This document shows positions 5,004-63,143 of a stretch of 64,000 nucleotides of DNA, piece after piece. Below the pieces are notes generated by a model, which was given only the letters and a program-made list of their open reading frames with translations, made no database searches and was not told where the DNA came from. The stretch spans positions 32,001 through 96,000 of the IMG/VR virus record IMGVR_UViG_3300014208_000026. One strand, given 5' to 3'. Both the position numbers and the translations under genes were made by a program. The first letter of the stretch is position 1, and every line of letters starts with the position of its first letter. The DNA comes from a virus (Duplodnaviria; Caudoviricetes).

Positions 5004-5140
5004 GATTCTGGAGGTAAAAAGCCTTGTTTTGCCAGGGCTCGTAGAGGCCGGGGCGGTACAGTAATAAGGCTATCGCGCTCGCTTAGAGGGTCGGATGTTT
5101 GTGGCCGACCCTCCCTGTCATAACCGCTTCGGAGCAAAGC

Positions 5141-42409: not shown

Positions 42410-42521
42410 GGAGGGGGAGATAGAAAGTGCTTTTCAGAGTTAGTGCCGATTCGTCCAACTGGGAGTTGGACGTTAGCTGGGCCATGGTGGCCCGGGAATG
42501 GCCTCAAGGAGGGGCCTTATA

Positions 42522-43676: not shown

Positions 43677-43677
43677 A

Positions 43678-47600: not shown

Positions 47601-47834
47601 AAGCACGACGATATGTCGGACGCCTTGACCCGTATGGTCTGGTTGGCTTCTCAGGCGGCCTGTAAGACCCATCACATTGCTGTGACCAGCGGGGCTACCA
47701 GCAGGGACTACGTTCGTGACCCTATGTTGTCCTCATCGAGCAAAGCCGTTATGCGCCGTCACCGGATGACCCGTTCAGGGAGTTCTCCTGAGCGAATGAT
47801 TCCGAGGGGCGGGCGGCTTGGAAGGCGGTTCTAA
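44628..47834 (+). CDS. terL: terminase large subunit, full length, with intein
   Basis: LYPVQ, spliced GRRSGKT, ILDEVAH, nuclease LGLDVG...HDDMSDA. Confidence 0.92.
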   Translation: MAGLGDIALDIGRKASTGKGSGKIANIIDFVESPWGLKARLYPVQRVILKAHYGIPLDDRNKIVNLTDWRREDSRMMTEADYLKFLFDAGRCNIREVDHERREMILSVGRRSGKCNLGDSLILTNKGVTRIDALGDPNGPEFQPLEIEVAQEADRKAISKFFYNGGVKPTRTLTTRCGYRLGGTDNHRIKVLTQDGIVDWKYLADIQVGDTVCIHRKTDLWASEYVDCTPYWTSGGLKKLTFPTLLDEDWGFLLGLLAGDGTWVHKTGIELTVADIETKIHARALWDQLFGSHKEQQVKESPITSRVQFFSVAMRQFLHNLGWELGIARDAKMVPWSIMRSPKSVVQAFLRGLFETDGGVESGGKVVSFSTASGRLAREVQTLLLNLGIVSRIKPKPIKGKIYWILCVRGLRSRIAFAELVGFDSHKKMDPLLASIEAAGKEGSNAEGIPYQRPWLRKLLESVPALQGIPGHKQEWSRSKLRAVLGNTLKPSTAEEVTYPMLLNALPVARSLGADLRIIAHFEELQRLDYFFDPIETIEEGEHPVYDLNVPDGESFVANGMTNHNTMISALISVYEMYKLIQKGNPQHYYALPQTNNIQIISVATDKDQAGILYNEASGYFRSCDFFQPYTANNTLSYARFQSPEDIQLYGPYAEDPTAKATLRMTFRSCVAKGLRGAGNLVVILDEVAHFTDSGQSSASAVYDAVQPSTATFFPKDPKDPTTPLGPGEGRTILISSPLGREGMFYKLFEIGFKGGEAAENMLCVQAPTWEVNPTVPASEFKKHFAKDAKVFFTEFGADFSDRTRGWIEREKDLTDCIKPDAKPTYKAAPRQPHFLGLDVGLVNDGTAIAIGHNEGDLIVLDIMDYIRAGEGKYVHHERLEFEDVAQWVYEWTRRFHIKEGIFDKHLADVMEQYLTKKGIGTLVSQRFTPQERSDVYQSFKDMMYDRRLVLYDAPIVSGEIHCAYIKELLELQAETRTKYITEVRAPNIEGKHDDMSDALTRMVWLASQAACKTHHIAVTSGATSRDYVRDPMLSSSSKAVMRRHRMTRSGSSPERMIPRGGRLGRRF
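44970..46322 (+). mobile_element. LAGLIDADG intein in TerL Walker A (451 aa)
   Basis: Starts CNLGDSLIL, has LLGLLAGDG and FLRGLFETDG, ends NHN before Thr. Confidence 0.92.
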
Positions 47835-48432: not shown

Positions 48433-50304
48433 ATGGCTGTCCAAAAACCGCGTACACGTCGAGTGTCTATCGTTGGGAATCGAGGGACCCCCCGGAGGGT
48501 CGTGGCAGGGGCCATGCGGTCGAACGGGTTGGAGGGGGCTGTTGAAGTCTCTAAAGTAAAGCCTCGTCCGGCAACCCTGGGCCGTCCCGCCGTCAGGACG
48601 GGAAAGCCAGGGAAGATTGCCTCTGGCTCGATGCGGTTGGGTACTTCCGCTTTCGGCATGCCCGGGATTGGGAACTCTACGATGGGGCAGGGAGGTAACT
48701 TCTACTCCCCTGAGTTGTCGACTGACTTTTTGGAATTGCCGCAGAGCAGGGACGAAGAACGAAACTACTATCGGTTCTTCTACAAGCACGATCCTTTCGT
48801 CGGTCAGGCTATTGACCTCCAGACAGATATTCCGCTCTCGAAGATTCGATTGGGTAAGCCTGAGATTCCAGAGTTTGATTTGGACTATTTGAACAGCCCC
48901 GAAGGAAAGGAATTCTTGAAGGGGGCGGACAAACTGGCCAAGCAGTCCCAGCGGTTCTGCAAGAAGTGGAACCGTAGGATTCACTTGCTGAAACAACTTC
49001 TGGATATCTCCCATGATTTGAACCTTCTCGGTGAGGTTTTCGTTTTCATAGAGGACGACAATCCAGAGATGCCTGACGACGTGAGATACAACACGGTCCT
49101 GGCGATTGATCCCGAAGGGGGGGAGCCAGTAGAGCAGAAGCATGAGCGCGAAGACGCGGATGAGCGGGCCTACGAGTGGCTCCGGACGCATTACAAGGGA
49201 TGGACCGCCATGCGGGTTCTGCCGCCCGAGCAGATCAGTATGAAGTCTTTCCCCTTCACTGACGAGAGGCTCATCCAGCTCATTATTGATAGTAAGACCA
49301 AGGATCTCGTGAACCAAGCTATGGCGGGGGATCCCGACTCCCAGCGGATCATGGAAAGTCTGCCTGAGGATGTGGTTAATGCTGTGCTAGAAGGGGTCAA
49401 CATTCCTTTGAACACGGACCCTGAAGCAGGATCTTTCGTACATTATATATCTCGTCGTAAGTCTCAATATGAAGAGAGAGGCACTTCTGTATTATCAAGA
49501 TGTATAAGAACACTTGTTTTTATGGACAAATGCCGTCAGGCAAATACTTCGATTGCATCTCGTCATATGACACCTATGCGTATTGTTTGGGTTGAAGATG
49601 GCGATGCGGCTGATGTTGAAGAATTGCGTGAACAAGTTGATATGGCGCTTCAGGACCCCGACTATTCGATCATCACGAACTATCAGGTCAACTGGGAGGA
49701 GATGGGGGCGGAGCAGCGGCTTCTGGATCTAACTAGTGAGTACGAGCGAGCAGACCGTATGTTGTATGCCGGTCTGGGAGTTACGGAGTCGCTGTTGTCC
49801 GGTGAGTCCTCCTACTCAGGGGATAGGATCAACCTGGAGGTGATCAACACCCGTTTCATGCTCTTCCGCGAGTTGATGCAAGAGTTTGTCGAAGAGCACC
49901 TCTACGCTCCGATGTGTCGCCGGATGGGTTACGTGGTCACGGACGAGTGGGGGGACGAGATTCCGCTGGTTCCTGGACTGTCCTTTACTCGACTGGCTCT
50001 GCGGGACAATGCGGACACGTTCGACTCCATGCTGAACCTCTACCAGAAGGGCAGTTTGGATATTGACGTGATCCTGGAACTCTTGAATATCGATCCCGAG
50101 ACGACCCGCGAGAAGCTGAAGCGGGATCTGTTCACTCTCCAGGACGCCACCTTCAACGAACTTCTGCGTAGCATCTACAACGACGCGGCTCAGAAGCTCA
50201 ACGACAATTCCAACATGATCGACCTCATGGCGAAGAAGATGGGGATCGACGGGCTGGTGTACAAGAAGGCACAGGAAGAAGGCGACGGTCGGTTCGGCGG
50301 CTAG
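48433..50304 (+). CDS. probable portal protein
   Basis: 623 aa downstream of terL; YRFFYKHDPFVGQAID, RGTSVLSRC and LYAGLGV patterns. Confidence 0.75.
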   Translation: MAVQKPRTRRVSIVGNRGTPRRVVAGAMRSNGLEGAVEVSKVKPRPATLGRPAVRTGKPGKIASGSMRLGTSAFGMPGIGNSTMGQGGNFYSPELSTDFLELPQSRDEERNYYRFFYKHDPFVGQAIDLQTDIPLSKIRLGKPEIPEFDLDYLNSPEGKEFLKGADKLAKQSQRFCKKWNRRIHLLKQLLDISHDLNLLGEVFVFIEDDNPEMPDDVRYNTVLAIDPEGGEPVEQKHEREDADERAYEWLRTHYKGWTAMRVLPPEQISMKSFPFTDERLIQLIIDSKTKDLVNQAMAGDPDSQRIMESLPEDVVNAVLEGVNIPLNTDPEAGSFVHYISRRKSQYEERGTSVLSRCIRTLVFMDKCRQANTSIASRHMTPMRIVWVEDGDAADVEELREQVDMALQDPDYSIITNYQVNWEEMGAEQRLLDLTSEYERADRMLYAGLGVTESLLSGESSYSGDRINLEVINTRFMLFRELMQEFVEEHLYAPMCRRMGYVVTDEWGDEIPLVPGLSFTRLALRDNADTFDSMLNLYQKGSLDIDVILELLNIDPETTREKLKRDLFTLQDATFNELLRSIYNDAAQKLNDNSNMIDLMAKKMGIDGLVYKKAQEEGDGRFGG

Positions 50305-50361
50305 TTTTTTTTTTGCCTATAGGGTCTGTCTGGGTAGGTGAGTTTCTTAACTTGAAAGGTT

Positions 50362-50856
50362 ATGACCATGACGACCCTGAAGAGCGCGTGTGTGAAGTTG
50401 GCGTATGAGAATCCGGAACTCCGCCCTCTGCTGATGCCTCTGCTGCGAAGCAAGACGGCAACCGAATTCCCCTCAAAAGAGGCTCTTGAGAAGTACCTCA
50501 AGGATCACCCCGGGGCAAACCGGTCGAACCATAAAGTTGTCGAGAACAAGGGTAAGGGAGAGGCCAAGACTGAGGGCAAAGAGGATTCTAAGGCTGTCTC
50601 CATGTCTCGTGAAGGCTACAAGGCTATTGCAAATTCCCTCCGTGGGTTTGGCAGTTCAGGTTCTTGGGAGCACGTTATTTCCTATGCCATTTCGGATAAG
50701 CCCATGGAAAGGAAGCACGTGGATAAGGTTCTTTCCGACATCAACGGGTATCTGAAGAACTGGAAAGCAACCTCCGAGAGTAACCGTTGGGGGGACAGGG
50801 ACAAGAAGAGCCTGACTCGGGCCAAGGGCATTCTGGAGAATTGGTCCAAGAAGTAG
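50362..50856 (+). CDS. putative virion cargo protein with N-terminal tag
   Basis: LKSACVKLAYENPELRPLLMPLLRSKTAT. Confidence 0.75.
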   Translation: MTMTTLKSACVKLAYENPELRPLLMPLLRSKTATEFPSKEALEKYLKDHPGANRSNHKVVENKGKGEAKTEGKEDSKAVSMSREGYKAIANSLRGFGSSGSWEHVISYAISDKPMERKHVDKVLSDINGYLKNWKATSESNRWGDRDKKSLTRAKGILENWSKK

Positions 50857-50919
50857 TTCCCATTCTCCCCACTCTCGCGCAATAACCAGTCTATTCCTTT
50901 CCTCTAATAGAACCTCTGC

Positions 50920-52026
50920 GTGAGTTCTGCCGTGGGTGCTATTCTATACTTGACCAACGTCAAGGTTTTCGAAGAAGCCTTGGCAAACTTGAATCGGTCG
51001 ATTCTCTACCCGACTGACCGTTGGGATCTGGCTATCAACTACGACACGCTCATGAGAAACGGGAAGCGTTGGGCAGACTACATCATCGACAAGCTGTCTG
51101 TTCCTCCCGCCTATGCCAAGTCGGTGGAAATGATTTCCAGGGAGTTTGCCAAGCCTCGGCGTCCCAAGGATATTCCAGCTTGGTTCGAGAAGAACAAGAA
51201 GCGGTTGGAAGTCCTGCTCCTGGCTGACAAGTGGCCCCAGGCTTCTGAGAACGAGGGTACAGAGGGAGAGGTTTTCAAACACGGGGGGTTGACAATCCAC
51301 AACGTCATTCGAGCAAGCGGTAAGGCTCTCGAAGATGCTTTGAAGACCCTCGATATCGCGATGAGGAATGCTGCGGGTACGGGGATCTCGGATTTCCGGT
51401 CGGTGGTGTATGGGGACGTGTACCTCGTCGGGCAGTTGGGCCGAAAGAACTGGGCCGCTTGGTATATGCCCGCCAAGGATATGATTTACCTCCGACCTGG
51501 GGTCAGGGGCTTACCTCCCGAAGAGTGCGCCCAGCACCTGTTGCACGAGTTCGGGCACCGGTACTGGAAATTGAAGTTGTCTCGTGAGGTAATGGGGACT
51601 TGGAACTCACACCACTACCTCATGGAACATGGAATCGGTGCGGGTGGAGACGCTGAAGCCAAAATGCCGGAGGTCGGGGATGCACTCCCTATGAATGTGG
51701 ATAGGAAAAAGGTCAAGGTTGAAAAGATTGAGAAGTCGACTTATTCTCTTGTTGCCGTAGATACGGGGGCTCCTGCGGGCACAATATCTTTTAGTCAGCT
51801 ATTCAATTGGCTGTACAATTATTCAATAGCCGAGAAGTTTCCGACCCTGTATGCCCGCACGGATGCCGAAGAGCACTTCTGCGAAGCATTGTCCCTGAGG
51901 GCTCTGGGCAAGCTGAAGGCTCACAACCTGGAAGCATTCGACAAGATTGTTCTGGGAGAAGGGAAGGGACAGGGGGCTGTGAGGGTTGCGGGTCGGTGGT
52001 TGCGAGGAAAGGGCTGGGCAAGATGA
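50920..52026 (+). CDS. zincin metallopeptidase (HEXXH) protein with C-terminal tag
   Basis: LHEFGH...YARTDAEEHFCE; ends RVAGRWL. Confidence 0.75.
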   Translation: MSSAVGAILYLTNVKVFEEALANLNRSILYPTDRWDLAINYDTLMRNGKRWADYIIDKLSVPPAYAKSVEMISREFAKPRRPKDIPAWFEKNKKRLEVLLLADKWPQASENEGTEGEVFKHGGLTIHNVIRASGKALEDALKTLDIAMRNAAGTGISDFRSVVYGDVYLVGQLGRKNWAAWYMPAKDMIYLRPGVRGLPPEECAQHLLHEFGHRYWKLKLSREVMGTWNSHHYLMEHGIGAGGDAEAKMPEVGDALPMNVDRKKVKVEKIEKSTYSLVAVDTGAPAGTISFSQLFNWLYNYSIAEKFPTLYARTDAEEHFCEALSLRALGKLKAHNLEAFDKIVLGEGKGQGAVRVAGRWLRGKGWAR

Positions 52027-52787
52027 ATCACGCTACATCAGTTGCTTTGATGAAGTTCCTTTCAGGGGTCGCTAGGAGACTCGGAGTGGGAAATGACACA
52101 TATATTGTGGGAGGAGCTGTGCGTAATTTTACGCTTGATCCAACAGGACTCAAGTATCCGATCAAAGATTTGGATATTGTAATAGATCCGGTATCTGTAG
52201 GCAGAAAAGATGCTTCTGATTGGTTTGCAAAGCAATTGTCTGAGAACATACCAGCAGAAACCAAGATCGTTACGAATAATTATGGAGTTGCGATATTGTC
52301 GGTAGTTGGGGAATGGGTTCTTGATGGGCAATCTATGCGCGGAGAGGTCATTGAGATTGCTAATGCTCGAAAAGAGAGTTATGGGGGTGGGGATAGTGAA
52401 AAGGATTCGGGAAAAGGATATAAACCTCATATGGTTGAACCAGCGACTATATATGAAGATATAAAAAGAAGAGAGTTCACCATGAATTATCTCCTCTGGC
52501 GTTTGTATGATCTTGCAGATGGTCCAGACAAAGCTGAGATATTGGATCTTGGGGGTTGTGGACTAAGGGATCTTAAAGAAGGTGTGTTGCGTTGCCCCTC
52601 CGATCCGGACAAGACTTTTTCCGATGATCCTAGTAGGCTTTTGAGGCTTTGTAGGTTCTCTGTGAAATACGGCTTTAAGATACCTCCTGAAATAGTAGAG
52701 TCTGCTAGAAGAAATGCGCATAAACTCAAGAACATACCTCCTAGTGCTCTTTCCAATTTACTCATTAAAATACTAGAGGGAAAATAG
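52023..52787 (+). CDS. cca: class II tRNA nucleotidyltransferase (CCA-type), N-terminal piece
   Basis: IVGGAVRN, KDLDI, EDIKRREFTMN, DDPSRLLR. Confidence 0.85.
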   Translation: MNHATSVALMKFLSGVARRLGVGNDTYIVGGAVRNFTLDPTGLKYPIKDLDIVIDPVSVGRKDASDWFAKQLSENIPAETKIVTNNYGVAILSVVGEWVLDGQSMRGEVIEIANARKESYGGGDSEKDSGKGYKPHMVEPATIYEDIKRREFTMNYLLWRLYDLADGPDKAEILDLGGCGLRDLKEGVLRCPSDPDKTFSDDPSRLLRLCRFSVKYGFKIPPEIVESARRNAHKLKNIPPSALSNLLIKILEGK

Positions 52788-53822
52788 ATGCCTGCTTCAC
52801 CTGAAAAAAGATGGACTGAAGAACAAGACAGCACCCTGCGTGAAGGTTGGGCTGGTGGCGTTTCCGCAGAGGATCTCGCGTTGAAGTTGTTAAGAACGGA
52901 AACATCTATTCGCGGACGAGTTGCGATACTGGGAGTGCGGAGGAGTCCGGGATATATTTCTTCTATTCGTTCAAGTCTGAGTGTTGGTAAGCGTTTTAGT
53001 TGGACGGAAGAAGAGGAGAATATGCTACGTGTCTTTTACGAGGAGCAAGGGCTGTCTTACGAGGAGGTGGCTGTTAAATTACCTGTTGCTAAGACCTATA
53101 CTGCAATCCGGATGAAAGTACGGAAACTAGGGCTTCACCACACTAAAGAACAGTTTCTAGCAGTTTGTAGTCGTATGTCTATGGGGGACAGAAATGGCAT
53201 GTACGGAAAACCCGGGATTAATCTAGGGAAATCTCCTTCGGAAGAAACACGGAATAAGATAAGAGAGAACAAGCTGGAGGGTTTTGCTTCTGGGAGGCTA
53301 CATGGCATGGTTGGCCCTCTTAATCCTGCATTTGGTAAACCCAGCTCTATGCGCGGTAAACATCTTCCGGATTCTGCAAAGCAGACTCTTAGCCAGAAAG
53401 CCCGTGTCCGGTGGTTGGATAGGTCTGAGCAATATAAGTCAGACCATTTGTTAAAGATGCGTAAAGGCTGGATAACCTGGGCTATGAGAACGGAGGAAAA
53501 CAGAACTTGGATTGAGAAACTGGTAGCAATATGGCTGCAAGAAGAGGCTCTGGCATTTACGGAGCAGACACAGGTCGGTTTCTATATTGTGGATTTCCTA
53601 GTCGGTAATAAGGTGATCGAAACGCAAGGCGACTACTGGCATGCCAATCCTTCTGTTTACAGTCAGTTGGACTCCACGCAGAAATCAAATGTACGGAGAG
53701 ACAAGGCCAAAGCAACTTACCTGAAAAATCGAGGTTTCGGATTTCTGTCTTTGTGGGAGTTAGACCTGAAAAAGAATCCCGAGGGCTGTCGAAATCTACT
53801 ACGGGAGTTCTTAGCCTCATGA
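52788..53822 (+). mobile_element. free-standing homing-endonuclease-like ORF (Myb/HTH repeats, NUMOD3, Vsr/EDxHD-like nuclease)
   Basis: WTEEQD and WTEEEE repeats, GMYGK...SEETRNKI, IVDF...IETQGDYWH. Confidence 0.8.
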
Positions 53823-55939
53823 ATACAACTGCTGCAAAAAAAGCCCTGCTCGAAATGCAAAGGCTTGGTCTGCTCGAAGTCATCAAGGAGATCGTCCAGG
53901 AGAACAAGGCGTTCCGGAACGCCCTTGGGAACTGGTCCGAGAAGACGGACCTGACGTTCTTGTTCGACCTCATGGATCTTGGTATGCCGGTAGGACGCGG
54001 GCTCTCTTTCCTCAGCAAGCCGGAGCAGGAGAGGGTTCGAGAAATCACCGTCGATATGGACGCCGCTGAAGGCCGCAAGTTCGTGACCATTCTGGAGCAG
54101 CCCGGACAGGTTATCAGCACTCCAGCTCTCATGGAAGAGTTCAATCTGAAAGGCCCCCAGGTTCGGCAAATCATGTTGACCGCGAGGGCTCTGTTGCTTG
54201 ACCGTCCAGAGTTGGCTCAGGACGCTGCAAAGTGGGAAGGGTTGGTTCGGGACCAGTTGCGGCAGGTTTTGAAGACCGCAGCGTGGGCCCCCTCAAAGAC
54301 CCCTCTTCGCAGAAGTGGCATATCCCGTTCATGGGATGCTTTCGCCAAATCCCATCGCAAGAACTTCTGGTATCTGCCCTATACCGTGGCCGCGAACGGG
54401 GAGATGATCGAAGATCAGTTGAAGCGTATGTACGTGCGGTACTGGACGGAGGACCCTACCACTGCGGACGTTACGTTGGGGGTGTTCCTACGGGGACACG
54501 AAGAGTTCCTGCGTAAGCGTGGAGAGGCAAACCAGAGGGCTCTGGACAACGCAGGCGATCAAGAGGCCCTGTTGGGCCGCTTGATGGCCGGAACGGCCTC
54601 TGCAGAAGATGTACGCGAGATCGGCAAGCTGTGGTCGAAAGACAACGTGTACACCTCCGATACCCGCAGAGCAAAAGATACGGTCAAGCGTAGAATACTT
54701 GAGCTGGCTCGACGACACCATTGGATGTCCGGTTACGGGGTGGACAAGCGGGTTACGAAGTACCCGTACATTTTGTACGTCGACACGCCCTTTGGTCAGG
54801 TGGCTTTCCACGAACAGTTGCCCTCTGTGCATCGGGAATATCCTGGGGAGTGGGACCGGAAACACGCAACGTGGGAAAGGGCCGCTAAGGTCTTGGAACG
54901 GTACGGGTTGAAAGACGGCGGCGGGGGAGCAACGATGGAGAGTAGAGTCGCATCGAGGTATCTGCAAGGCGGTGTGGGGATGGATAAGCAAAGTTCGGTT
55001 CGGCAGGCTCTTTTACATGTGACCGGTTCCCCCTCAATCACCCCCTGCCCCAAGAAACCCGACCGAGTGTGGACGATCCTGCGGGATAAGCACCCTCGAT
55101 TGCCGTTCACTCCGATCTTTGAAGTGAATGCGTTCCCCGAAGACCAGATTCATGACTGGAAGTGGTCTCAGGGGAACCTCCGGTATTTCAGCAGGATCAC
55201 TACCGAGAATCAGCCCCGGTGGTTGCTTTTGGAGTTCGGGAAGGAAGAACCGAAGATGTGCCCGAAGTGCGACAAGGATTTCCCCGCTGGTTCGAACTTC
55301 TGCCCCGATTGTGGGGTAAAGCTGGTAAGCAAAGTTGCATCGAGATACTTGTGCACAGCAGCGGCAGAAGAGGTCGTCGACTCCAACCTCAAGGGTGTCG
55401 TCGAGGTTCCCAGGAACACGTTCCCTGTGGAGGTTCTCCCTCCCAAGAAGAAGCGGAAAAAATGGCCCTTCGAAGGGTTCATTGATTTCCAGGGGTTGGA
55501 GATCGACGTAGAGAACGACAAGGGATCGGTGCGGAGCGGGGTGTCAGAAGATGGAACCCCGTGGGCTGTCGAAATGTTCTGGCCGTACGGTGAGATCAGA
55601 GGGACAGAAGGGGTCGACGCTCCTGACGCCTTGGATGCATACGTAGGCCCCAACCACGATTCCTCTCTTGTCGTGGTTATTCACCAGCATGACCCAGACA
55701 CGGGAAAGTACGACGAGGACAAGGTCATGCTGGGGTTCGACTCTACTGAGGAAGCGATCGGGGCGTACAAGAAACAGTACAGCAAGCCTGGGTTCTATGT
55801 AGAAGGTGAGTATACCGAAATGCCCATTGGGCAGTTCTGGCGGTGGGTGCATGATGACAAGAACAGGGGCAAGAAAGTGAAGGCTCGGGTTCAAAGAATC
55901 GCCTCTAGGTGGTTGAGGGAGGATTCTTTTGCAGAGTAG
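53819..55939 (+). CDS. polyvalent protein: CCA enzyme C-terminal piece, unknown domains, zinc ribbon and pyrophosphatase-like domain
   Basis: Begins KKALLEMQRLGLLE (continues the CCA body domain); CPKC..CPDC; PYGEI..GVD..DALDAY...DEDKVMLGF. Confidence 0.75.
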   Translation: MNTTAAKKALLEMQRLGLLEVIKEIVQENKAFRNALGNWSEKTDLTFLFDLMDLGMPVGRGLSFLSKPEQERVREITVDMDAAEGRKFVTILEQPGQVISTPALMEEFNLKGPQVRQIMLTARALLLDRPELAQDAAKWEGLVRDQLRQVLKTAAWAPSKTPLRRSGISRSWDAFAKSHRKNFWYLPYTVAANGEMIEDQLKRMYVRYWTEDPTTADVTLGVFLRGHEEFLRKRGEANQRALDNAGDQEALLGRLMAGTASAEDVREIGKLWSKDNVYTSDTRRAKDTVKRRILELARRHHWMSGYGVDKRVTKYPYILYVDTPFGQVAFHEQLPSVHREYPGEWDRKHATWERAAKVLERYGLKDGGGGATMESRVASRYLQGGVGMDKQSSVRQALLHVTGSPSITPCPKKPDRVWTILRDKHPRLPFTPIFEVNAFPEDQIHDWKWSQGNLRYFSRITTENQPRWLLLEFGKEEPKMCPKCDKDFPAGSNFCPDCGVKLVSKVASRYLCTAAAEEVVDSNLKGVVEVPRNTFPVEVLPPKKKRKKWPFEGFIDFQGLEIDVENDKGSVRSGVSEDGTPWAVEMFWPYGEIRGTEGVDAPDALDAYVGPNHDSSLVVVIHQHDPDTGKYDEDKVMLGFDSTEEAIGAYKKQYSKPGFYVEGEYTEMPIGQFWRWVHDDKNRGKKVKARVQRIASRWLREDSFAE

Positions 55940-58904
55940 CGCCCACAAGAGGGTCATAGGAGGGATACGTACAGCAGCTTTCTGCCACCTCGGCCCTCTC
56001 TATCATGGAACCAAGGATCCCGAAGGGCTCCTGGAAGCCCAGACCTTTGATTGGAGCCGGTTGCAGTCTCGGGATTCGGGTTTCTTCGGGAACGGCTTTT
56101 ACCTCGCAGACAGTCCGCAACATGCTCGATCCTATGGGGGGACGGTCTTGGAAGTGGCCCTGAAGCCCTCGGCCAAGATCCTGTGCGCCATGGAGCCTGG
56201 AGTCTTCTCTGGAATGACCCCCACGAAGTCTCCCTCTTACCAGGAGGAATTCGCTGTTTTCATGACCGGACGGATTGTGAAGCATCGGGGGGATATAGAA
56301 AAGGCCAAGAAAATCGTAGAGGGGGAGTACACCCCGGGAGGCACTTCTTTCGACTCCATTGGTTGGAAAAAAGATATCACAATGTGGGTACGGGACGAGA
56401 AGGTGGCCGATGCTATCAATTGGGGGTCTGAGACAATTGTCCTGAACCCCCAAGCTATCGCCAGCATCCGACGAATCCGGTACCGTAAGACTCAAGCAAG
56501 TGCGGCTGACGGCATCAAGACCGGCAAAGGCAAAGGGGTCGGTTTCTTCATCCCGCTCCCGTTAGATGAAGCCGCCAAGTTCCCCTCTCTCGGAGACCAG
56601 GATAAAAGCCCGAGCCACGTTACCTTTTTATACGTTGGTGACGTAACTCCCGAGGAGGAGCCAAAACTGCTGAGTGTCGCTCGCAACGTGTTCCGCTCTT
56701 TCGCCAGGGGTCCTGTGAGAGCCCATTCCCTGCCCGTGGAATACTTTGTCCATCCGGCCATGGGGCGTCGGGTAGCTGTCGTACCTTGGCAGTTCGACAA
56801 GGATCTGGCCGGACTCCGCTGGAAGCTGCGGGATGCTCTACAGGACGCGGGTTTCAAGGTAGAGGACAGTTTTCCTCTTGTATACCGTCCCCACACGACT
56901 CTCCGGTATTGTGAGAGCCTCCAGGAGGAGTACAAAGGCTCAGTGCCAGTTGCGGGCTGGTCTTTCGACGCGGTTGAGATTTGGGGCCTGCCATATTTGT
57001 ACCGGATTCCGTTTGGGGAAGGTTGTTCAGTGAGGGTTGCCGGAGCCCCCCTGTCCTTTGCTCCTGCGGAGGACAAGAGAGGCAAGCCCCTCTCCCCTGG
57101 GGACTATGTGCAGCTTCGAGGTCGGGACGGATGGGTGGCAATTAGCCCCAACGTCCAGGGGTTCTATTACCTCGACGAAGAAAATACGGGGATGGCACCT
57201 CAACTTGTTATCGTGACAACGGATTGGAAGGGGGCTGTTAAAACCTCTGAGGTTGTCAAGACGCAGACCGTCAGGATGTCCGCGTATAAAGATCCTCCCG
57301 AGGACGTGGCTCGGGTTCTGCAGACGCTTAGGGTAAAAGTCTCCCGTACTGCTCAGTGTGGGGGATTGGCTTCGAGAGTAGCCAGCCGATTCCTGGAGGC
57401 TTCCAAGAGTCTCCCCATGAAAGGGCGTCGTTACGGATTCTTCATCTACGGGGACAAGACCGGGGCCTGGGAGTTGGGAGATAGTGCTCGCTGGGGAGGG
57501 TTGGAAGACGGAGCGTGGCAGGCTATCCCGAGCTTCTCTTCGAAGAACGAGTGGCGCAACCTGTCTGTAGAGGGGGCTACTGAGCATCACCCTGGATTCT
57601 TGAAGGCTCTCAGGGAGATGGTTCGAGAGTATCCCGAAATGACAGATTGGTGGGTCCAGTTCGACGGGCCTTGGATTGAAGTACGGGACTTGGTAGGAAG
57701 CGGCTCCGTTTCTCCCAAGTTCAATTGGGAGTCCCTCAAGCTATACCACGGCACCAGCATGGCGGCTTGGGAGAAGATCCAAAAGCAAGGGCTCCTCCCT
57801 CGCAATCTGAGCGGGATGGGGCCTTCGTATGGGACGCTATCGCAGGCAGGGGAAGGGCATAAAGACGCTGTGTACCTCACGACCCAGATTGGCACTGCTA
57901 GAATGGCCGCCAGAGACGCGGCTCGCGTCACAAAGAGTAAGCCTATAGTTTTGCAGATAAGGGGGCTGGATGCGGAGTTCGTGGTTGCCGACGAGGATAG
58001 CCATTCGGCCAACCCTGAAGTGAGCCTCCAGACCTTGGGTTCTGTGGCTTACGTAGCCCCGATTCCTGCAAGTAGGGTGGAAATGTTCGAGTATTTAGTG
58101 GACAGCGGGTGGACTAAAACCGCTCGTTTCGATCCCGAACTGGAGGGGTTGGGCGGGTTGCTTCGGGGAGAACCGACCACTCTGTACCACGGGACCACAC
58201 GGCAGTTCAAGAAGTTCGACTTGTCCAAGTCCCGTACGGAGTTGGTGAATGATTTCTACGGGGCTGGCATTTTCCTGACTCCTTCTCAGAGTGTTGCTTG
58301 GGATTACGCCGAGGCCAATAGAAACATTGGATTACCGTCGTCGATTGTGCAGGAACTCAAGAGGAAGAATCCCGTTGCGGGGGATTTCTTGGAAGCTCTG
58401 GTCAAGCACGGGGATGCTGCTTGGGATATAAAGTTGCCTAGCGGGCGCACTTGGGCACAGTCCTTCGCCAGCGACGAGCTAGAGGCGGGGGTCGATCCGA
58501 ACAGCATCAGTGACATTGCGCAGTACGTCGAGGGCAGCAAGGTTCATCCGTTGGCCGACCAGACCGGTTTTGTTAATATCTTCAGTACCTCTACAGGAGC
58601 CCCTGAGTGGCTGTACGACCTGTTGGCAGAGGTGGGCCTGGACGACAAAAAGTACCGTCCCAAGGTCTACGCAGTATCTGTGAAGGTAGACAAGGTGTTG
58701 GTGACAGCCAAGGAGAGTGAGGCTAAGAAGGCCCACAGTCGGGGTTACGATGCGGTGATATTCCACGGGTCCAGGCTGGTGGGCGGAGTACCCGAGGTTG
58801 CAGTTTTCGACCCGAGCAAGGTTCGTATCCTGAATGTTCGTACGGGGTCCTTGGTTCAACGAGTTGCCTCCCGATACTGTGAAGGGGGTCTGAGTGGGAA
58901 GTAG
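55929..58904 (+). CDS. polyvalent protein: three ART-fold domains plus 2H phosphoesterase
   Basis: Three LYHGT motifs (GFYLA, VYLTT, GIFLT) and two HxT motifs (SHVTF, PHTTL). Confidence 0.8.
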   Translation: MQSSAHKRVIGGIRTAAFCHLGPLYHGTKDPEGLLEAQTFDWSRLQSRDSGFFGNGFYLADSPQHARSYGGTVLEVALKPSAKILCAMEPGVFSGMTPTKSPSYQEEFAVFMTGRIVKHRGDIEKAKKIVEGEYTPGGTSFDSIGWKKDITMWVRDEKVADAINWGSETIVLNPQAIASIRRIRYRKTQASAADGIKTGKGKGVGFFIPLPLDEAAKFPSLGDQDKSPSHVTFLYVGDVTPEEEPKLLSVARNVFRSFARGPVRAHSLPVEYFVHPAMGRRVAVVPWQFDKDLAGLRWKLRDALQDAGFKVEDSFPLVYRPHTTLRYCESLQEEYKGSVPVAGWSFDAVEIWGLPYLYRIPFGEGCSVRVAGAPLSFAPAEDKRGKPLSPGDYVQLRGRDGWVAISPNVQGFYYLDEENTGMAPQLVIVTTDWKGAVKTSEVVKTQTVRMSAYKDPPEDVARVLQTLRVKVSRTAQCGGLASRVASRFLEASKSLPMKGRRYGFFIYGDKTGAWELGDSARWGGLEDGAWQAIPSFSSKNEWRNLSVEGATEHHPGFLKALREMVREYPEMTDWWVQFDGPWIEVRDLVGSGSVSPKFNWESLKLYHGTSMAAWEKIQKQGLLPRNLSGMGPSYGTLSQAGEGHKDAVYLTTQIGTARMAARDAARVTKSKPIVLQIRGLDAEFVVADEDSHSANPEVSLQTLGSVAYVAPIPASRVEMFEYLVDSGWTKTARFDPELEGLGGLLRGEPTTLYHGTTRQFKKFDLSKSRTELVNDFYGAGIFLTPSQSVAWDYAEANRNIGLPSSIVQELKRKNPVAGDFLEALVKHGDAAWDIKLPSGRTWAQSFASDELEAGVDPNSISDIAQYVEGSKVHPLADQTGFVNIFSTSTGAPEWLYDLLAEVGLDDKKYRPKVYAVSVKVDKVLVTAKESEAKKAHSRGYDAVIFHGSRLVGGVPEVAVFDPSKVRILNVRTGSLVQRVASRYCEGGLSGK

Positions 58905-60030
58905 AGACCTACAGGCTTCGTTGGTCTTATACCACGGCACCTCTGGAGGTTTTGGGGATCTGGACCCGGACAAGAGCGGTCTAGGGACACATTTCGGTAG
59001 TTACCGTGCGGCCACCCGGCGTTTGCGGGGGCTGAAAAACGTGCAGGGGCCGCATCCGGTTGAGGTCCGAAGGTACAAGATCCTTTCTTCGAACCCCCTG
59101 CTTCTGGATGACGTCGGGGCTTGGGACAGTCTGCCGGATGTCGAGCACGCTCTCATCAAGGTTGGGGTCATGCCCTTGGAAGAGCTTCCCAATAGCCGTC
59201 AGTTGAATGGGTCTGCTGCATGGGAACACCTTCGGGATTTGATTGAATCCGCAGGTTACGATTCCGTGGTCTACGCCAATCGGCTTGAGGACCGTGGTTC
59301 TCTGTCCTACATTGTCTGGGACCGTTCTATGGTGCAGAGACTCCCTGACGCCAAGATTCCCAAGCACCTGAAGACCGCTTCTGGCACGGTCCCCATTCTC
59401 GTCCTCCCAGCCGAAACAGTGAAGTACCGGAAAAAGTTTCCCGGATTCAAAGACACTCTGATCGTGGGCAAGTTCCTAGCGTCGGTCTCCCTATATCGGA
59501 TTTTCGACTTCGATGAGTTCCTCGGTTTGATGTACCGCTTTAACTCCGATATCAAAGGTGGTACCTTTGCGATTCCTGCTGAGAGAACTTTCGGGGCGTC
59601 CTGGAGCGGTAGTTTGCAGGATGCTTTGGACTTCGGGACTGGTTGGAAATCTCGGGGTAGATTAAAGGGGCAACTCTACATTGCAGAGATTGACGGGAAT
59701 GGCAAGACTTTCAGCCATCTGGCTCCCAACATCGATCCTATTTTTGACGGGTTTGCTCTCGATAATGCTTTTCAATCTAACATGCACGTTGATAGCTGTC
59801 GTGGTGAGTTGGGTTGCTCTGTAGTCCACGTTCGTCCCTCCAAGGTGAAGACGTGGTATAGGGTGGACGAGAGCGGGCACCCTGAGAAAGTTTCTGTCCA
59901 GGAGTTGCAGGCGGAATTCAAGGAATGGGAAGAGAACCGGAAGAAGGAGTACATGACGGCCTCTGCGGACAAAACCGCAGCGACGCTCACGAAAGCTTGG
60001 ATCATGTCTGTCCGGCGAGGTTGGAAGTAG
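58894..60030 (+). CDS. polyvalent protein with two ART-fold domains
   Basis: LYHGT..GTHFG..GYDSVVY and LYR..ASWS motifs separated by KTAS. Confidence 0.7.
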   Translation: MGSRDLQASLVLYHGTSGGFGDLDPDKSGLGTHFGSYRAATRRLRGLKNVQGPHPVEVRRYKILSSNPLLLDDVGAWDSLPDVEHALIKVGVMPLEELPNSRQLNGSAAWEHLRDLIESAGYDSVVYANRLEDRGSLSYIVWDRSMVQRLPDAKIPKHLKTASGTVPILVLPAETVKYRKKFPGFKDTLIVGKFLASVSLYRIFDFDEFLGLMYRFNSDIKGGTFAIPAERTFGASWSGSLQDALDFGTGWKSRGRLKGQLYIAEIDGNGKTFSHLAPNIDPIFDGFALDNAFQSNMHVDSCRGELGCSVVHVRPSKVKTWYRVDESGHPEKVSVQELQAEFKEWEENRKKEYMTASADKTAATLTKAWIMSVRRGWK

Positions 60031-61323
60031 TTACGGGTAGCATAGACTTTTATCCAAGCTACACATTTCTTGGGTATCAGGGACTACATGCTCCTGACCG
60101 ATCTCCGCCCAATAAAATCCACGTCTATTGTCCAAAGATCGCCAGCCTTCCCCCAGAGGGGTTAGGTTCAGGCTAATATTCCGGGAGGCGTTCAAGTCAG
60201 CATTTGCGGCGAAGCCGCATTTCTTGCACTTGAACATCTCTCCTTTTCTATTAGCCTTCTGGACCCATCCACAACACGAACATCTCTGGCTCGTAAAAGC
60301 TGGGGGGACTTTAATGATCTGGACACCAGTGTCTTCACAAAGTCTACCCAGCTTACCAAAGATCTCCGTATATGTCCAACTCCTCATGGACTTGGACGTT
60401 CTCACGCCTAATCTAAGATTCTTGATCGCCTCGATCTTAAGTGTTTTTACTCCCCGTAGGTTTAGCTGGTTCAACGACCAGTTGATGTAGTTGGTCCTGT
60501 GGGCTTGAGCCCTCGCGAAAGCTTTAGACCCCTTCTTCTTATGGTTCATCTCAGCGATGATCTTGGGCAGGGTCCAACCATGCACGTCTTCCTGGGACTG
60601 AACCCCGTCGCTCGAAGAGAACACTTTCTTATAACCTATATCCACCCCAACTGTTGTTCCCTGAGATACGGGTTCGGGTTTGGGAATAGAAAATACACAC
60701 GTTACAGAGTTTGAGTTTAGTCTAAGCCCAGGTCTGATCTCACCTCTGGACTTCATCTCGTTAAAGTGCTTAGTTAGTTTGATCGGGAACACGATCTTTA
60801 GGGAGTGGTCCCAACCAGGAGGAGTACCTAAACAGGTTAGATTTACATAAGCATCGAACGAGGTCTCGGACTCCCAGTCGATCTTGACGAATCTTGAGTC
60901 CAGTTGGGGATTCATGTTCTTGAGATCCGGCTTGGACATTTTGGTCTTATCTATGACCTTCTTGAGCTTCTGGGCTTGTTTGGTCTTACCCTCAGCTAAA
61001 AGTTTAGCATAGACGAACTCACGCCTTTTCTGCTTTTCACGAGTTCCTCTCACGATCCCAGAAGCCTGTTTAGCTGCGGCTTGGACAGCACGAGCCGAGA
61101 GCCAAGTCTGGGTCGAGACTTGATCTGTAAAGTTTTTCGAAAACAACCTCTGGATCTCAGCGTCCTCTCCGAGAGTCCAGAGAGGGTCGACGAACAGAGC
61201 GGTTACTCGCCAGTACTCTTCAGTAAAGAGATCGATGAGATCTCGTTTTCCTGGGTTGGTGAATTTGAGGGACAGTTTAGAGGACCGGATCAGGGAGTAT
61301 TTGTCTTTCTTGGATCGAGCCAT
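60031..61323 (-). CDS. tnpB: TnpB RNA-guided nuclease (solo element)
   Basis: VGVDIG, IEAIKNL, TSQRCSCCG...CKKCG, NADLNAS. Confidence 0.9.
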   Translation of the reverse strand: MARSKKDKYSLIRSSKLSLKFTNPGKRDLIDLFTEEYWRVTALFVDPLWTLGEDAEIQRLFSKNFTDQVSTQTWLSARAVQAAAKQASGIVRGTREKQKRREFVYAKLLAEGKTKQAQKLKKVIDKTKMSKPDLKNMNPQLDSRFVKIDWESETSFDAYVNLTCLGTPPGWDHSLKIVFPIKLTKHFNEMKSRGEIRPGLRLNSNSVTCVFSIPKPEPVSQGTTVGVDIGYKKVFSSSDGVQSQEDVHGWTLPKIIAEMNHKKKGSKAFARAQAHRTNYINWSLNQLNLRGVKTLKIEAIKNLRLGVRTSKSMRSWTYTEIFGKLGRLCEDTGVQIIKVPPAFTSQRCSCCGWVQKANRKGEMFKCKKCGFAANADLNASRNISLNLTPLGEGWRSLDNRRGFYWAEIGQEHVVPDTQEMCSLDKSLCYP

Positions 61324-61360
61324 CGGGTCCTGGACTCCTTCAGTTCCTTCGGAAAACCGG

Positions 61361-61404
61361 TTGACAAAAAATCCATCCCTGTCTATAGTACCCTATAGAC
61401 AGGG
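61361..61404. promoter_or_regulatory. sigma70-type promoter (+) overlapping a 12 bp palindrome at the left end of TnpB element 2
   Basis: TTGACA, 17 nt, TATAGT; CCCTGTCTATAG-TACC-CTATAGACAGGG at 61377-61404. Confidence 0.65.
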
Positions 61405-61535
61405 TATTGGAACACGATACTTTAGTAAACTCACGATACTCTGGTAAACCAGAGTAAACTGCCTACACTTCTTTCAAACCCGCTAAGTTCCCTATAGCCT
61501 CGCTATGGTTAGGAGCCTATCTAAGGGACTGCCTT

Positions 61536-61925
61536 ATGCCCGACCGGAATCTTACAACCCGAATTGCCCAAAGGCACTTGCAGGCTCGCAAGTTTGTCTT
61601 GACTCCGCAGGTAGTCGCCGAGTTCCGCAAAGAATTCCTGATGTTGATGAAGAACCTGAAGCGAGTTCAGGATTACGAAGGGGCGATGGCCCTGAAGGAG
61701 GCTCTCCGTACCTGGAACCAGGACATGGATTTCTTTTTCGAGCAAATCCGTGATTTCCTCGAAGATCTGGTTCGAACCGAGAAAGACTCCGGTACAGGTA
61801 AATGGGCGGAGCATTACCTCAAGGAGTTAGGTCCGAGTTTCGGGGCTTTTCTGCATTGGGTTCCACATCTTCCGGTGACTAGGGTGGGGACGGTAACTTT
61901 TGATTTTGATTTCGATTTTAGATAG
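61536..61925 (+). pseudogene. 5' piece of a tagged zincin peptidase gene interrupted by TnpB element 3
   Basis: Starts with RIAQRHL tag; rejoins 63144 in frame when 61876-63143 is removed. Confidence 0.7.
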
Positions 61926-63143
61926 GAAATTTCATATGATCTTGGCACACCGCATACAGCTTGACCCGACTTTCAAACAGGTCCGGTATTTTGTCCAAGC
62001 CAGCGGTACGCACAGATTCGTTTCTAACTGGGCTTTGGCTGAGTGGAATCGGCTTTACGAAGCCGGAGAGAAGCCAGACGGAATGAAGTTGAGGAAATCT
62101 TTCAACTCCCGTTACCCCAAGGAGTTCCCTTGGATCTCGGAACTCCACAGGGACTGTCATTCACAGCCTTTTAACGATCTCCAAGTGGCATTCTCTAGGT
62201 ATTTCAAAGGCGAGGCCAAGCATCCTGTATTCAAGAAAAAGGGAGAGCACGATTCTTTCTATGTAGCAAATGACATTATCTCTTTGGATGAGTCAAGAGT
62301 TCGAATTCCACGTTTGGGTTGGGTTCGGATGACGGAGCCCCTCCGGTTCGCGGGGAAAATTATGAGTGCCCGAGTCACGAGAACCGCTGACAAGTGGTTT
62401 ATTTCTGTCCAGGTGGACATAGGAGATCCCGCTCAAAGTGGTCAGTGGGAGCGAATTTCTGACGGGACAGTCGGGGTAGACCTGGGAATCAAGCATGCAG
62501 TGGTCACCTCCGACAATGAGGTATTCGACGGCCCTAAGCCTCTGAAGAAGAACTTGGAGAAGCTTAAACGTTTGCAGCGACAACACGCCCGTAAGCAGAA
62601 GGGCTCCAAGAACAGGCACAAACTCACGATGCGGCTGGCTCGGCTCCACGCCAAGATCGCGAACATCCGGAAGGACTTTCTACACAAAGTGACGACCAAG
62701 ATCTGTCGTGAGAACCAAACGATAGTTCTTGAGGATCTGAACGTAGCGGGGATGATCAAGAATCATAAGCTAGCTCGGGCGATCATGGATATTGGGTTTG
62801 GAGAGTTCAGGAGGCAGGTTGAGTACAAGTCCGGCCTCTACGGGAACACCCTAATTCTGGCGGACCGGTTCTATCCTTCTTCTAAGTTGTGTTCAAAGTG
62901 TGGACACAAAAAAGAGGATCTGACTCTAAAGGATCGGACGTATTGTTGTGAAGCTTGTGGTGCTGAGATCGACCGGGATCTCAATGCGGCTTTGAATTTG
63001 CGTAATCTAAGTACCCTCGGCTTGAGGGGAGCTTCCGGAGGCGATCTACCTCCGGTAAAAGCCTGTGGACCGAAAGAGCCTCGGAGCGTCGGGAAGAAGC
63101 AGGAACCGAAACGTGTGAAGGGATAAATCCATGCACAAGTCGG
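61876..63143 (+). mobile_element. solo TnpB element, IS607-like GG core
   Basis: CGG at both junctions; typical right end GCCTGTGGA...GAAGCAGGAA...hairpin...GTCGG. Confidence 0.8.
61936..63126 (+). CDS. tnpB: TnpB (IS605 OrfB type with N-terminal HTH)
   Basis: MILAHRIQLDP, VGVDLG, IVLEDL, SSKLCSKCG...CEACG, DRDLNAA. Confidence 0.92.
   Translation: MILAHRIQLDPTFKQVRYFVQASGTHRFVSNWALAEWNRLYEAGEKPDGMKLRKSFNSRYPKEFPWISELHRDCHSQPFNDLQVAFSRYFKGEAKHPVFKKKGEHDSFYVANDIISLDESRVRIPRLGWVRMTEPLRFAGKIMSARVTRTADKWFISVQVDIGDPAQSGQWERISDGTVGVDLGIKHAVVTSDNEVFDGPKPLKKNLEKLKRLQRQHARKQKGSKNRHKLTMRLARLHAKIANIRKDFLHKVTTKICRENQTIVLEDLNVAGMIKNHKLARAIMDIGFGEFRRQVEYKSGLYGNTLILADRFYPSSKLCSKCGHKKEDLTLKDRTYCCEACGAEIDRDLNAALNLRNLSTLGLRGASGGDLPPVKACGPKEPRSVGKKQEPKRVKG

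Follow-up and report, generated by a model that had tools for sequence, protein, structure and literature searches.

Polyvalent proteins in the head module of a giant phage with a split class II nucleotidyltransferase, a pyrophosphatase-like domain and a 2H phosphoesterase as a putative RNA 3'-end unit

The DNA analysed here, referred to as the window, comprises 64,000 nucleotides (bases 32001-96000) of a 257,181-base contig from an uncultured IMG/VR virus of the Caudoviricetes (IMGVR_UViG_3300014208_000026). CheckV estimates the contig to be 49% complete, hence the phage genome must be very large. Within the head-morphogenesis module of this giant phage, as located by PHROG searches, a locus is filled by four plus-strand genes encoding the N-terminal piece of a nucleotidyltransferase, a homing endonuclease and two large proteins of 706 and 991 amino acids (aa), whose domains are separated by short peptide tags (Table 1). 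Each of the two large polypeptides combines at least two domains of disparate activity in a head and packaging gene context, as is characteristic of polyvalent proteins. No close relatives at the DNA level were obtained from a scan of viral contigs with the 991-aa protein, and megablast of positions 50000-60000 against GenBank phages gave no match.

Table 1. Genes, domains and peptides of the locus and its surroundings, in window numbering. ART, ADP-ribosyltransferase; HTH, helix-turn-helix; OB, oligonucleotide/oligosaccharide-binding; AF2, AlphaFold2.
Feature	Position	Strand	Description
Nucleotidyltransferase N-piece, 254 aa	52023-52787	+	class II CCA/poly(A)-polymerase type; comprises head and neck, catalytic motifs complete; GC 0.42
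Homing endonuclease gene, free-standing, 344 aa	52788-53822	+	two GcrA/Myb-like HTH repeats and a Vsr/DUF559/MTES_1575-type nuclease; GC 0.47
706-aa polyvalent protein	53819-55939	+	nucleotidyltransferase C-piece at N-terminus, InPase near C-terminus
Nucleotidyltransferase C-piece (body domain)	53819-54283	+	ATG at 53819; N-terminus of the 706-aa protein; closes at KTAA site 54272-54283
InPase (PF18823)	55475-55849	+	family I inorganic-pyrophosphatase-like OB fold; Pfam E 3.6e-35
991-aa polyvalent protein	55929-58904	+	ART A, 2H, small domain, two-lobed module C, ART-PolyVal D
2H phosphoesterase, LigT-like	56493-57044	+	HVT...HTT; Pfam 2_5_RNA_ligase2 E 7e-5
Module C, N-lobe	57390-57713	+	alpha/beta domain, no assigned fold; AF2 pLDDT 90
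Module C, ART lobe	57717-58109	+	LYHGT...GLLP...VYLT; AF2 pLDDT 93
Tag 1, RVASRYL	54944-54964	+	
Tag 2, KVASRYL	55331-55351	+	
Tag 3, RIASRWL	55895-55915	+	eight codons before stop
Tag 4, RVASRFL	57375-57395	+	top-scoring tag of the genome, 27.4 bits
Tag 5, RVASRYC	58860-58880	+	eight codons before stop
ART module A, ART-PolyVal-like	55968-56483	+	LYHGT...FYLADS; Pfam ART-PolyVal 3.3e-4; residues 14-185
ART module D, bona fide ART-PolyVal (PF18760)	58131-58841	+	1.2e-16 with whole protein, 1.2e-11 with segment
Domain of unknown function, ~219 aa	54284-54940	+	without Pfam match or usable ESM Atlas match
Small domain closing in a zinc ribbon	54965-55330	+	CPKC...CPDC at ~55241-55325; recurs in P0049
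Small domain of unknown function, ~106 aa	57051-57368	+	no significant Pfam match; one homolog module in P0207
368-aa protein (p368 module)	50920-52026	+	C-terminal tag variant RVAGRWL from ~51985
378-aa protein	58894-60030	+	N-terminal LYHGT ART-like module, KTAS at residue 160, second module, KTAA near C-terminus
Terminase pieces	42498-47834		PHROG
Portal gene	48433-50304		upstream of the polyvalent genes; PHROG
Head maturation protease, 1104 aa	71161-74475 (L002:11161-14475)		downstream; two Hint/intein insertions
Major head protein	76768-77643		downstream

The N-piece was assigned to the class II nucleotidyltransferases from its matches to the Pfam PolyA_pol head (PF01743; E 1.3e-11, 45.3 bits against a cut-off of 23) and to the PHROG tRNA nucleotidyltransferase family (7e-27). 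Its continuation was found by comparison with unsplit homologs. Residues 4-247 of a 476-aa homolog, P0157, align with the N-piece at 57% identity (1e-101), and residues 246-394 of the same protein align with residues 21-169 of the 706-aa protein at 39% identity (8e-34). Identity amounts to 57-65% between the N-piece and the corresponding part of unsplit homologs, and to 31-55% between the C-piece and its counterpart in 22 homologs. In all 21 unsplit homologs having both parts, these abut with a gap of 1-12 residues; P0028, which has an intein inside the N-part, shows a gap of 561 residues. Across 22 homologs there is no variation in the head metal-binding motifs GG..R and KD.D (G30, G31, R34, D49 and D51) or in the neck residues R149, R150, N155, D201, D202, R205, R208 and F212 (RR..N and DD..R..R..F), with motif D reading DDPSR instead of EDxxR. 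The first-pass annotation, a reading of the sequence without database searches, had proposed a CCA-type nucleotidyltransferase with its C-piece fused to a pyrophosphatase-like domain, and the matches of both pieces and of the InPase domain agree with this arrangement.

The gene between the two pieces was overlooked in that annotation. It matches Pfam GcrA (9.6e-9), MTES_1575 (1.4e-4) and DUF559 (2.7e-4), and both PHROG and PADLOC call it a homing endonuclease, PADLOC being otherwise uninformative at the locus. Its ATG stands directly behind the stop codon of the N-piece, and its stop codon overlaps the ATG of the C-piece. Because the endonuclease gene sits in the junction of neck and body, the nucleotidyltransferase would be made as two polypeptides. 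A group I intron was considered as the cause of the split and rejected, since no Rfam family was found in positions 50000-64000 and the open reading frames (ORFs) abut, leaving no room for one. The N-piece and the endonuclease gene form an island of low GC content (0.42 and 0.47 against 0.55-0.56 around them) that is absent from relatives, which fits import by the endonuclease along with flanking sequence and suggests that both were recently acquired.

An interrupted gene in a recently imported island could be a decaying remnant, inactivated by insertion of the endonuclease. We regard this as highly improbable, for the N-piece and the C-piece each lie in an intact ORF provided with start signals of its own, and none of the invariant catalytic residues is missing. 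The same split also recurs: three homologs end exactly at the junction of the N- and C-parts, one InPase relative begins with the C-piece, and a relative (L008) has an endonuclease homolog of 46% identity at the same junction; in another homolog, an intein lies inside the head domain. Furthermore, structure prediction of the complex between the two pieces gave a score of 0.71, a value reached by 58 of 80 solved complexes and by 2 of 110 mismatched pairs, while the best of three controls scored 0.02; at least 97% of the contacts agreed between runs, with a partner pLDDT of at least 86. The solved CCA enzymes are single chains, hence the binding score may only reflect likeness to them. The prediction supports a nucleotidyltransferase that is split, not broken, and whose halves would re-associate.

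The InPase domain is clearly matched by its family model (121.2 bits against a cut-off of 26.8, covering positions 12-134 of the 135 in the model). Its translation shows the segments DAPDALDAY and DEDK, which may hold the four acidic metal-binding residues conserved in the family. A solved phage portal (PDB 9b41, 3.9e-15) has the same domain at its C-terminus, and elsewhere the domain is joined to portal and MuF head proteins. For the 2H phosphoesterase the copy in the window reaches 23.3 bits, under the Pfam cut-off of 27, which homologs pass with 30-37 bits; both HxT motifs (H48, T50, H140 and T142) are invariant in 57 sequences of the domain. A search of solved structures with the single sequence gave only a weak LigT match (E 0.88), so that profiles were needed. 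The profile of 57 homologs matched the LigT-type structures 2fyh, 1vdx, 1iuh and 5h7e at E 2.6e-5 to 3.8e-3 over a stretch spanning both motifs, and these proteins are RNA 2',3'-cyclic phosphodiesterases and 2'-5' ligases. The 2H phosphoesterase had been anticipated at nearly the same place in the first reading, whose positions for the InPase, 2H and LYHGT domains agree with ours within about 30 bases. Given their invariant catalytic motifs, the nucleotidyltransferase and the 2H enzyme are likely active.

Relatives were collected by a HMMER search with the 991-aa protein, a query that holds no nucleotidyltransferase. It returned 837 representatives at E ≤0.001, onto the best 149 of which the modules of this phage were mapped. 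A 150-row alignment of whole proteins was discarded, as it misplaced fragments of the 2H domain and of module C at 15-20% identity, and the modules were aligned one by one. The 2H module is present in 55 homologs, and in 23 of these (21 of the 34 with a length of at least 600 aa) the same chain carries the nucleotidyltransferase, mostly as a direct fusion in the order 2H, N-part, C-part; a Pfam check of the fusion was positive for five of six sampled long homologs. Three arrangements occur once each, namely 2H-ART-nucleotidyltransferase (P0008), nucleotidyltransferase-ART-p368-module C (P0007) and 2H-module C (P0045). A search with the InPase region yielded 119 relatives of 48-79% identity, three of which join nucleotidyltransferase, InPase and 2H in one chain and in the order of the window, while a fourth joins nucleotidyltransferase and InPase and a fifth, resembling the 706-aa gene, the C-piece and InPase. 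Gene order is also recurrent: in L004 and L006/L007 the portal gene is followed by the polyprotein with the nucleotidyltransferase, with or without 2H, and then by a p368 homolog, and in L008 by a 2H-nucleotidyltransferase N-piece and then a homing endonuclease. Two further architectures were seen among the relatives. One, recurrent in P0159, P0160 and others, is AAA_33 kinase-InPase-DUF5661-2H-SAK, which would be a second set of RNA-end-healing-like modules around the same InPase. In the other, a topoisomerase IB is fused to 2H-nucleotidyltransferase (P0062) or to 2H and InPase (P0164), and it also occurs together with an RNA_ligase domain (PF09414) in a 940-aa protein (L006:10080-12902) encoded two genes past the 2H-nucleotidyltransferase polyprotein.

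The recurrent fusion of the nucleotidyltransferase, InPase and 2H domains in relatives suggests that they probably work jointly on RNA 3' ends, and from the sequences a unit of this kind is likely. In such a unit, the LigT-like 2H phosphoesterase would open ends bearing a 2',3'-cyclic phosphate, the class II nucleotidyltransferase would extend or rebuild the 3' end, most plausibly that of a tRNA, and the InPase would clear the pyrophosphate released by nucleotide addition. The untagged N-piece would join the C-piece at the N-terminus of the tagged InPase protein. ART modules of the H-Y-D type, including one whose NAD+ lobe resembles Tpt1, travel in the same proteins; they are shuffled independently among relatives and probably modify other host targets. 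On balance, we lean towards reading the locus as a group of head-module polyvalent proteins that contain this conserved RNA 3'-end unit, carry tags for loading or processing and take ARTs along as co-passengers.

Several observations weigh against this reading. The NCBIfam model of the PcnB poly(A) polymerase matches the nucleotidyltransferase slightly better (2e-25; 89.5 bits against a cut-off of 305.65) than those of CCA enzymes do (4e-18), and the CCA models, at 24-65 bits, stay far below their curated equivalog cut-offs of 290-624; with both kinds of model so low, the scores do not discriminate between CCA and poly(A) specificity. The body domain matches no Pfam tRNA-binding model, and the closest protein of a GenBank phage to the nucleotidyltransferase, from a 735-kb uncultured phage, is 34% identical (27% for Lak phages). 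In this phage the 2H domain sits in the next gene and is not fused to the nucleotidyltransferase. The InPase is promiscuous, the nucleotidyltransferase being found with it in only five of 119 relatives, and DNA-acting modules such as topoisomerase IB in the polyproteins of relatives indicate that not all of their content is RNA-related. No tRNA genes were found on the 257-kb contig, hence maturation of phage-encoded tRNAs is not supported for this half of the genome. On the same contig, about half of the genome, neither the Rnl2 (PF09414) nor the RtcB (PF01139) ligase was matched, and the T4 Rnl1 profile (PF09511) was uninformative, as even its control matched nothing in any genome. Finally, the ESM Atlas neighbours of the 2H domain (score 0.95) are viral 2H/LigT clusters that include Acb1-annotated ones, and the paper that defined phage polyvalent proteins argues against a link between their 2H domains and RNA repair (Iyer, Burroughs, Anand, de Souza, Aravind 2017, J Bacteriol, PMC5512222).

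A different explanation is a generic arsenal for counter-defence and host takeover that involves no RNA repair. The 2H enzyme would then degrade immune signals such as cyclic oligonucleotides or 2'-5' oligoadenylates, in the manner of Acb1, the nucleotidyltransferase would either destabilise host RNA as a poly(A) polymerase or act on nucleotides, the InPase would hydrolyse a nucleotide-like signal and the ARTs would modify host proteins. Consistent with it, Acb1 members make up 25-100% of some of the clusters neighbouring the 2H domain, PcnB is the top NCBIfam match of the nucleotidyltransferase, modules are widely shuffled with DNA-acting enzymes alongside, and signal degradation or RNase activity is what Iyer et al. 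(PMC5512222) favour for polyvalent 2H domains, together with a nucleotide-directed InPase. Nevertheless, the Acb1 model (PF23474) failed to match the 2H domain with a limit as loose as E 10, whereas LigT models and solved RNA 2',3'-cyclic phosphodiesterases did match it. A fusion of 2H and nucleotidyltransferase in 23 of 55 homologs is difficult to square with unrelated substrates, and the relatives with the kinase-InPase-2H-SAK architecture use domains otherwise tied to RNA end healing. We therefore judge such an arsenal to be not very likely, although slightly the likeliest of the competing explanations.

The RNA 3'-end reading retains only part of the earlier proposal of a virion-delivered kit healing tRNAs damaged by host toxins or anticodon nucleases. 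The coupling of nucleotidyltransferase, InPase and 2H, which that proposal implies, is borne out by the 23 fusions and the three triple chains. Its other half is not: breaks in the anticodon need a ligase, and with Rnl2 and RtcB not found on the contig, anticodon-loop repair is not supported and repair of the 3' end fits better.

The fate of the Tpt1/KptA-like domain of that proposal depends on module C, the homologs of which always span both lobes, residues 490-732, as one unit with HGT, GLxPR, YLTxQ and DxDS conserved. Among solved structures the best match of the ART lobe is the NAD+ lobe of Tpt1/KptA (Z 9.7-11.0, root-mean-square deviation 2.0-2.8 over 85-94 residues, 18-24% identity by VIA-align), while other ARTs (TreX, pertussis and cholera toxins, DarT and Arr) reach a Z of at most 8.6. 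Tpt1 chains are likewise the best sequence matches of the module C profile, with E values of 0.004-0.1 and only over 28-33 residues, and the Pfam Tpt1 model (PF01885) gives 15.6 bits against a cut-off of 26. Three residues of the catalytic Arg-His-Arg-Arg tetrad of Tpt1 sit in its N-lobe. The N-lobe of module C, folded alone, found no Tpt1 match; its best PDB structure was Stay-Green (7y5y, Z 5.8), Foldseek returned nothing at E ≤0.001, and no invariant or nearly invariant Arg or His was seen in it across 53-56 homologs. Only one Arg, behind GLxP, is conserved, which does not make up the tetrad. Nor is module C simply another copy of ART-PolyVal: this was considered and rejected, as hhalign against module D gave a probability of 5% and aligned only the HGT...[FY]LT core. 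The profile of module D itself found nothing meaningful among solved structures. As judged from sequence and predicted fold, module C is an ART of the H-Y-D style in which a Tpt1-like NAD+ pocket is combined with a new N-domain; the resemblance to Tpt1 noticed in the first reading thus holds for the NAD+ lobe, at the place indicated, and does not extend to membership in the Tpt1 family. The N-lobe, like the ART modules A and D, had not been recognised in that reading.

These properties bear on the first-pass model in its complete form, a virion-delivered, four-step, ligase-free line for tRNA made up of 2H, a Tpt1-like enzyme using NAD+, the nucleotidyltransferase and InPase, with damage by anticodon nucleases included. 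ThpR/LigT enzymes give a product with a 2'-phosphate, and the motif of Tpt1 is VHL, with His where module C has the Tyr of YLT. With LigT-type enzymes leaving a 2'-phosphate, the chemistry of the complete model is coherent. In addition, 2H enzymes process the Tpt1 product Appr>p (PMC7824862). The NAD+ lobe of module C is some 1-2.4 Z units nearer to Tpt1/KptA than to other ARTs, and the Tpt1-like module shares a chain with 2H here and in P0045 and with the nucleotidyltransferase in P0007. On the other hand, the N-lobe gave no Tpt1 match and has no invariant Arg or His, Tyr in place of His and the conserved DxDS are as in H-Y-D ARTs, module C is fused to 2H or nucleotidyltransferase in only two of 55 homologs, its usual partner being a zincin-like module, and the ligases needed for the anticodon loop were not found on the contig. 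We find the complete model doubtful. A variant confined to the acceptor end seems just as improbable to us: pre-packed, ligase-independent repair in which 2H opens the end, the NAD+-dependent Tpt1-like ART clears the 2'-phosphate, the end is rebuilt by the CCA enzyme in its two pieces and InPase takes away pyrophosphate, or possibly strips from CCA ends the pyrophosphate that toxSAS/CapRel-type defences add, with a portable seven-residue peptide both addressing and releasing each module.

That peptide is the tag [RK][VI]ASR[YFW][LC], five copies of which separate the domains of the two polyvalent proteins. The strict pattern [VI]ASR[YFW] occurs 11 times in the 257-kb contig, always on the plus strand and in frame, five of the copies lying in the two polyvalent genes. 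A matrix made from homolog tags only places four more variants above the best control from the opposite strand. One variant, RVAGRWL in the p368 protein, reaches 13.7 with the position-specific scoring matrix against 11.6 for that control. Codons for Ser and Arg vary freely, hence the tag is conserved at the protein level, and a DNA or RNA motif was ruled out on the same grounds. The interleaved tags of the first reading are thus confirmed as short peptides that are common to unrelated proteins and conserved as protein, as is expected of peptide tags. In the homologs, 28 of 150 representatives carry the tag; for 23 of 30 tags the nearest border of a module or end of the protein is at most 20 residues away (21% expected by chance), and none of the 30 lies deep inside a module (41% expected by chance). 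Degenerate forms were observed in two unsplit nucleotidyltransferase homologs, RVACQFL between the nucleotidyltransferase and a C-terminal SH3-like domain (P0157, residues 398-408) and RVASDIR near the N-terminus (P0158, residues 8-14). A second short motif, KTA[ASG], occurs 28 times, compared with 4.7 ± 2.2 in shuffled sequences, and is concentrated in the tail of the head protease, a scaffold-like 459-aa protein and the polyproteins, with one site exactly at the end of the C-piece; none was found in the portal, major head protein or terminase. Together, the [RK]VASR[YFW]L tags and KTA[A/S/G] sites mark module borders, and most likely they serve capsid loading, head-protease cleavage or both.

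From the portal-adjacent position, the domain families and the tags we infer that the polyvalent proteins are packed in the virion; the catalytic activities, RNA or tRNA as the substrate, cleavage and timing are likewise proposed on indirect grounds. Alternatively, the proteins would not be packaged at all, being late cytoplasmic enzymes that merely lie in the head cluster, and the peptides would be processing or docking motifs unrelated to capsid loading. Jumbo phages do encode cytoplasmic RNA-repair enzymes (PMC7824862), and the strict tag is found in just one of 119 InPase relatives, hence the tag code is specific to one clade. Against this, three other related phages keep the position behind the portal, fusions of InPase to portal and MuF head proteins occur elsewhere, and the polyproteins share KTA[ASG] sites with the protease tail and the scaffold-like protein. 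Taken together, cytoplasmic enzymes seem unlikely to us, and packaged polyvalent proteins remain the preferred reading.

Some features of the tagged genes stand apart from these considerations. Both polyvalent genes share the same ending of tag, eight codons and stop (55895-55939 and 58860-58904), and the next gene begins at a TTG or GTG inside such a tail, behind a GGAGG or GGGGG box. The 991-aa protein starts in this way at TTG 55929, six bases 3' of GGAGG, with its ribosome-binding site inside the tail of tag 3. This overlap looks like a repeated junction cassette. ART module D (residues 735-991) reaches 46-62 bits against a cut-off of 31.2 and has 41 homologs, and ART module A, with 21.9 bits, stays under the same cut-off and has homologous modules in P0008 and P0116. 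The domain at 54284-54940 is absent from the homolog sets, and the zinc ribbon matches DZR (1.2e-5) and Zn_ribbon_3 (3.6e-4), both under their cut-offs. The p368 module is present in eight homolog polyproteins, is fused behind the nucleotidyltransferase in relatives and is homologous to the N-terminus of a 1638-aa protein in L004 and to a 434-aa protein in L006. The two halves of the 378-aa protein match separate homolog modules, P0071 and P0037.

Farther along, two TnpB/OrfB_IS605-type genes with a Cas12f1-like TNB domain (60031-61323 on the minus strand and 61900-63126 on the plus strand; 1e-18 to 1e-29) stand between the ART proteins and a 2229-aa polyvalent protein, and Rfam found no guide RNA family at them. 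An HD domain (3.2e-7) and three HExxH-like motifs were recognised in the 2229-aa protein, which runs from 63131 past the window end (L002:3131-9820). This protein bears the tag RVASRFL at residue 1262 and a tag variant near residue 1345, contains KTA sites at three places and has a long tail of low complexity rich in acidic residues and lysine. We consider it a candidate for a processing peptidase or for cargo of the polyvalent kind. Insertions are seen in other genes as well. The head maturation protease, which bears inteins here, is 535 aa long in L004, and the portal of L006 bears a LAGLIDADG insertion. At least two ORFs (42498-43676 and 44628-47834) resemble the terminase large subunit, and a single 781-aa ORF of L007 aligns to the window ORFs 42498-43676, 43678-44628 and 44628-47834, so that the terminase gene of this phage may also be interrupted. 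In a 1623-aa ribonucleotide reductase ORF (5099-9970), the match to the PHROG family is broken into three stretches, suggesting inserted inteins there, too.

Phage RNA repair and polyvalent virion proteins, each a known idea, have so far been treated separately. Fusions of 2H and nucleotidyltransferase, with or without InPase, near the portal gene suggest a role in repair, contrary to the argument on 2H made when polyvalent proteins were first described. Some giant phages may thus inject RNA-end repair or RNA-tailing enzymes as cargo that is active before phage transcription, and if pre-packed repair of tRNA acceptor ends were true, immunity that targets tRNA would be neutralised before any phage gene is expressed. 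The locus also offers experimental material: a naturally split nucleotidyltransferase, a Tpt1-like NAD+ lobe on a new N-domain, and a short border-marking peptide present in many metagenomic relatives.

Phage-type polyvalent proteins were predicted to be packed in the capsid and injected with the DNA, and InPase, 2H and H-Y-D ARTs are listed among their domains (PMC5512222). The proteins described here are like them in having several unrelated enzymatic domains per chain, InPase, 2H and ART-PolyVal among these, and genes beside head genes, and the neighbouring giant HExxH protein could be the processing peptidase. They differ in the repeated fusion of 2H with a nucleotidyltransferase of class II and in the conserved delimiter peptide, none having been described there. 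That work mentions no CCA-type (class II) nucleotidyltransferase, lists Pol-beta nucleotidyltransferases for conjugative elements only and speaks against a repair role of 2H; hence the fusions reported here extend it. In jumbo phages, a CCA-adding enzyme, 2H and a KptA-type ART were proposed to counter host attack on tRNA (Iyer et al. 2021, Viruses, PMC7824862). Those are separate, presumably cytoplasmic proteins accompanied by RNA ligases and kinases, whereas here the enzymes are modules of head-cluster polyproteins and no such ligase was found on the contig.

With Tpt1/KptA, module C shares the fold of the NAD+ lobe and the YHGT...GLxP motif; it differs in the N-lobe, where no RNA-binding domain of the Tpt1 type was found, and in having YLT instead of VHL. 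E. coli Cca combines its nucleotidyltransferase with an HD domain that acts as a 2',3'-cyclic phosphodiesterase. The enzyme of this phage keeps the motifs of head and neck, and it, too, is a class II nucleotidyltransferase with a phosphoesterase as partner, one that would be able to clear 2',3'-cyclic or 2'-phosphate ends. This phosphoesterase is of the 2H and not the HD type, however, the body is divergent (NF008137, 44.7 bits against a cut-off of 451), the gene is split and the enzyme is embedded in multi-enzyme proteins. The tag recalls the T4 capsid-targeting sequence and the cargo-loading peptides of encapsulins, being a short peptide common to unrelated proteins of the head cluster that may double as a protease site; unlike them, it occurs at N-termini, at C-termini and between modules, and it is unrelated in sequence. 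In T4-like phages, genes are split by free-standing homing endonucleases. The arrangement in this phage is similar, with the endonuclease ORF exactly between the halves of an enzyme and separate translation signals for each, but the enzyme concerned is a nucleotidyltransferase, and GcrA-like HTH repeats accompany a nuclease of the Vsr/MTES_1575 type.

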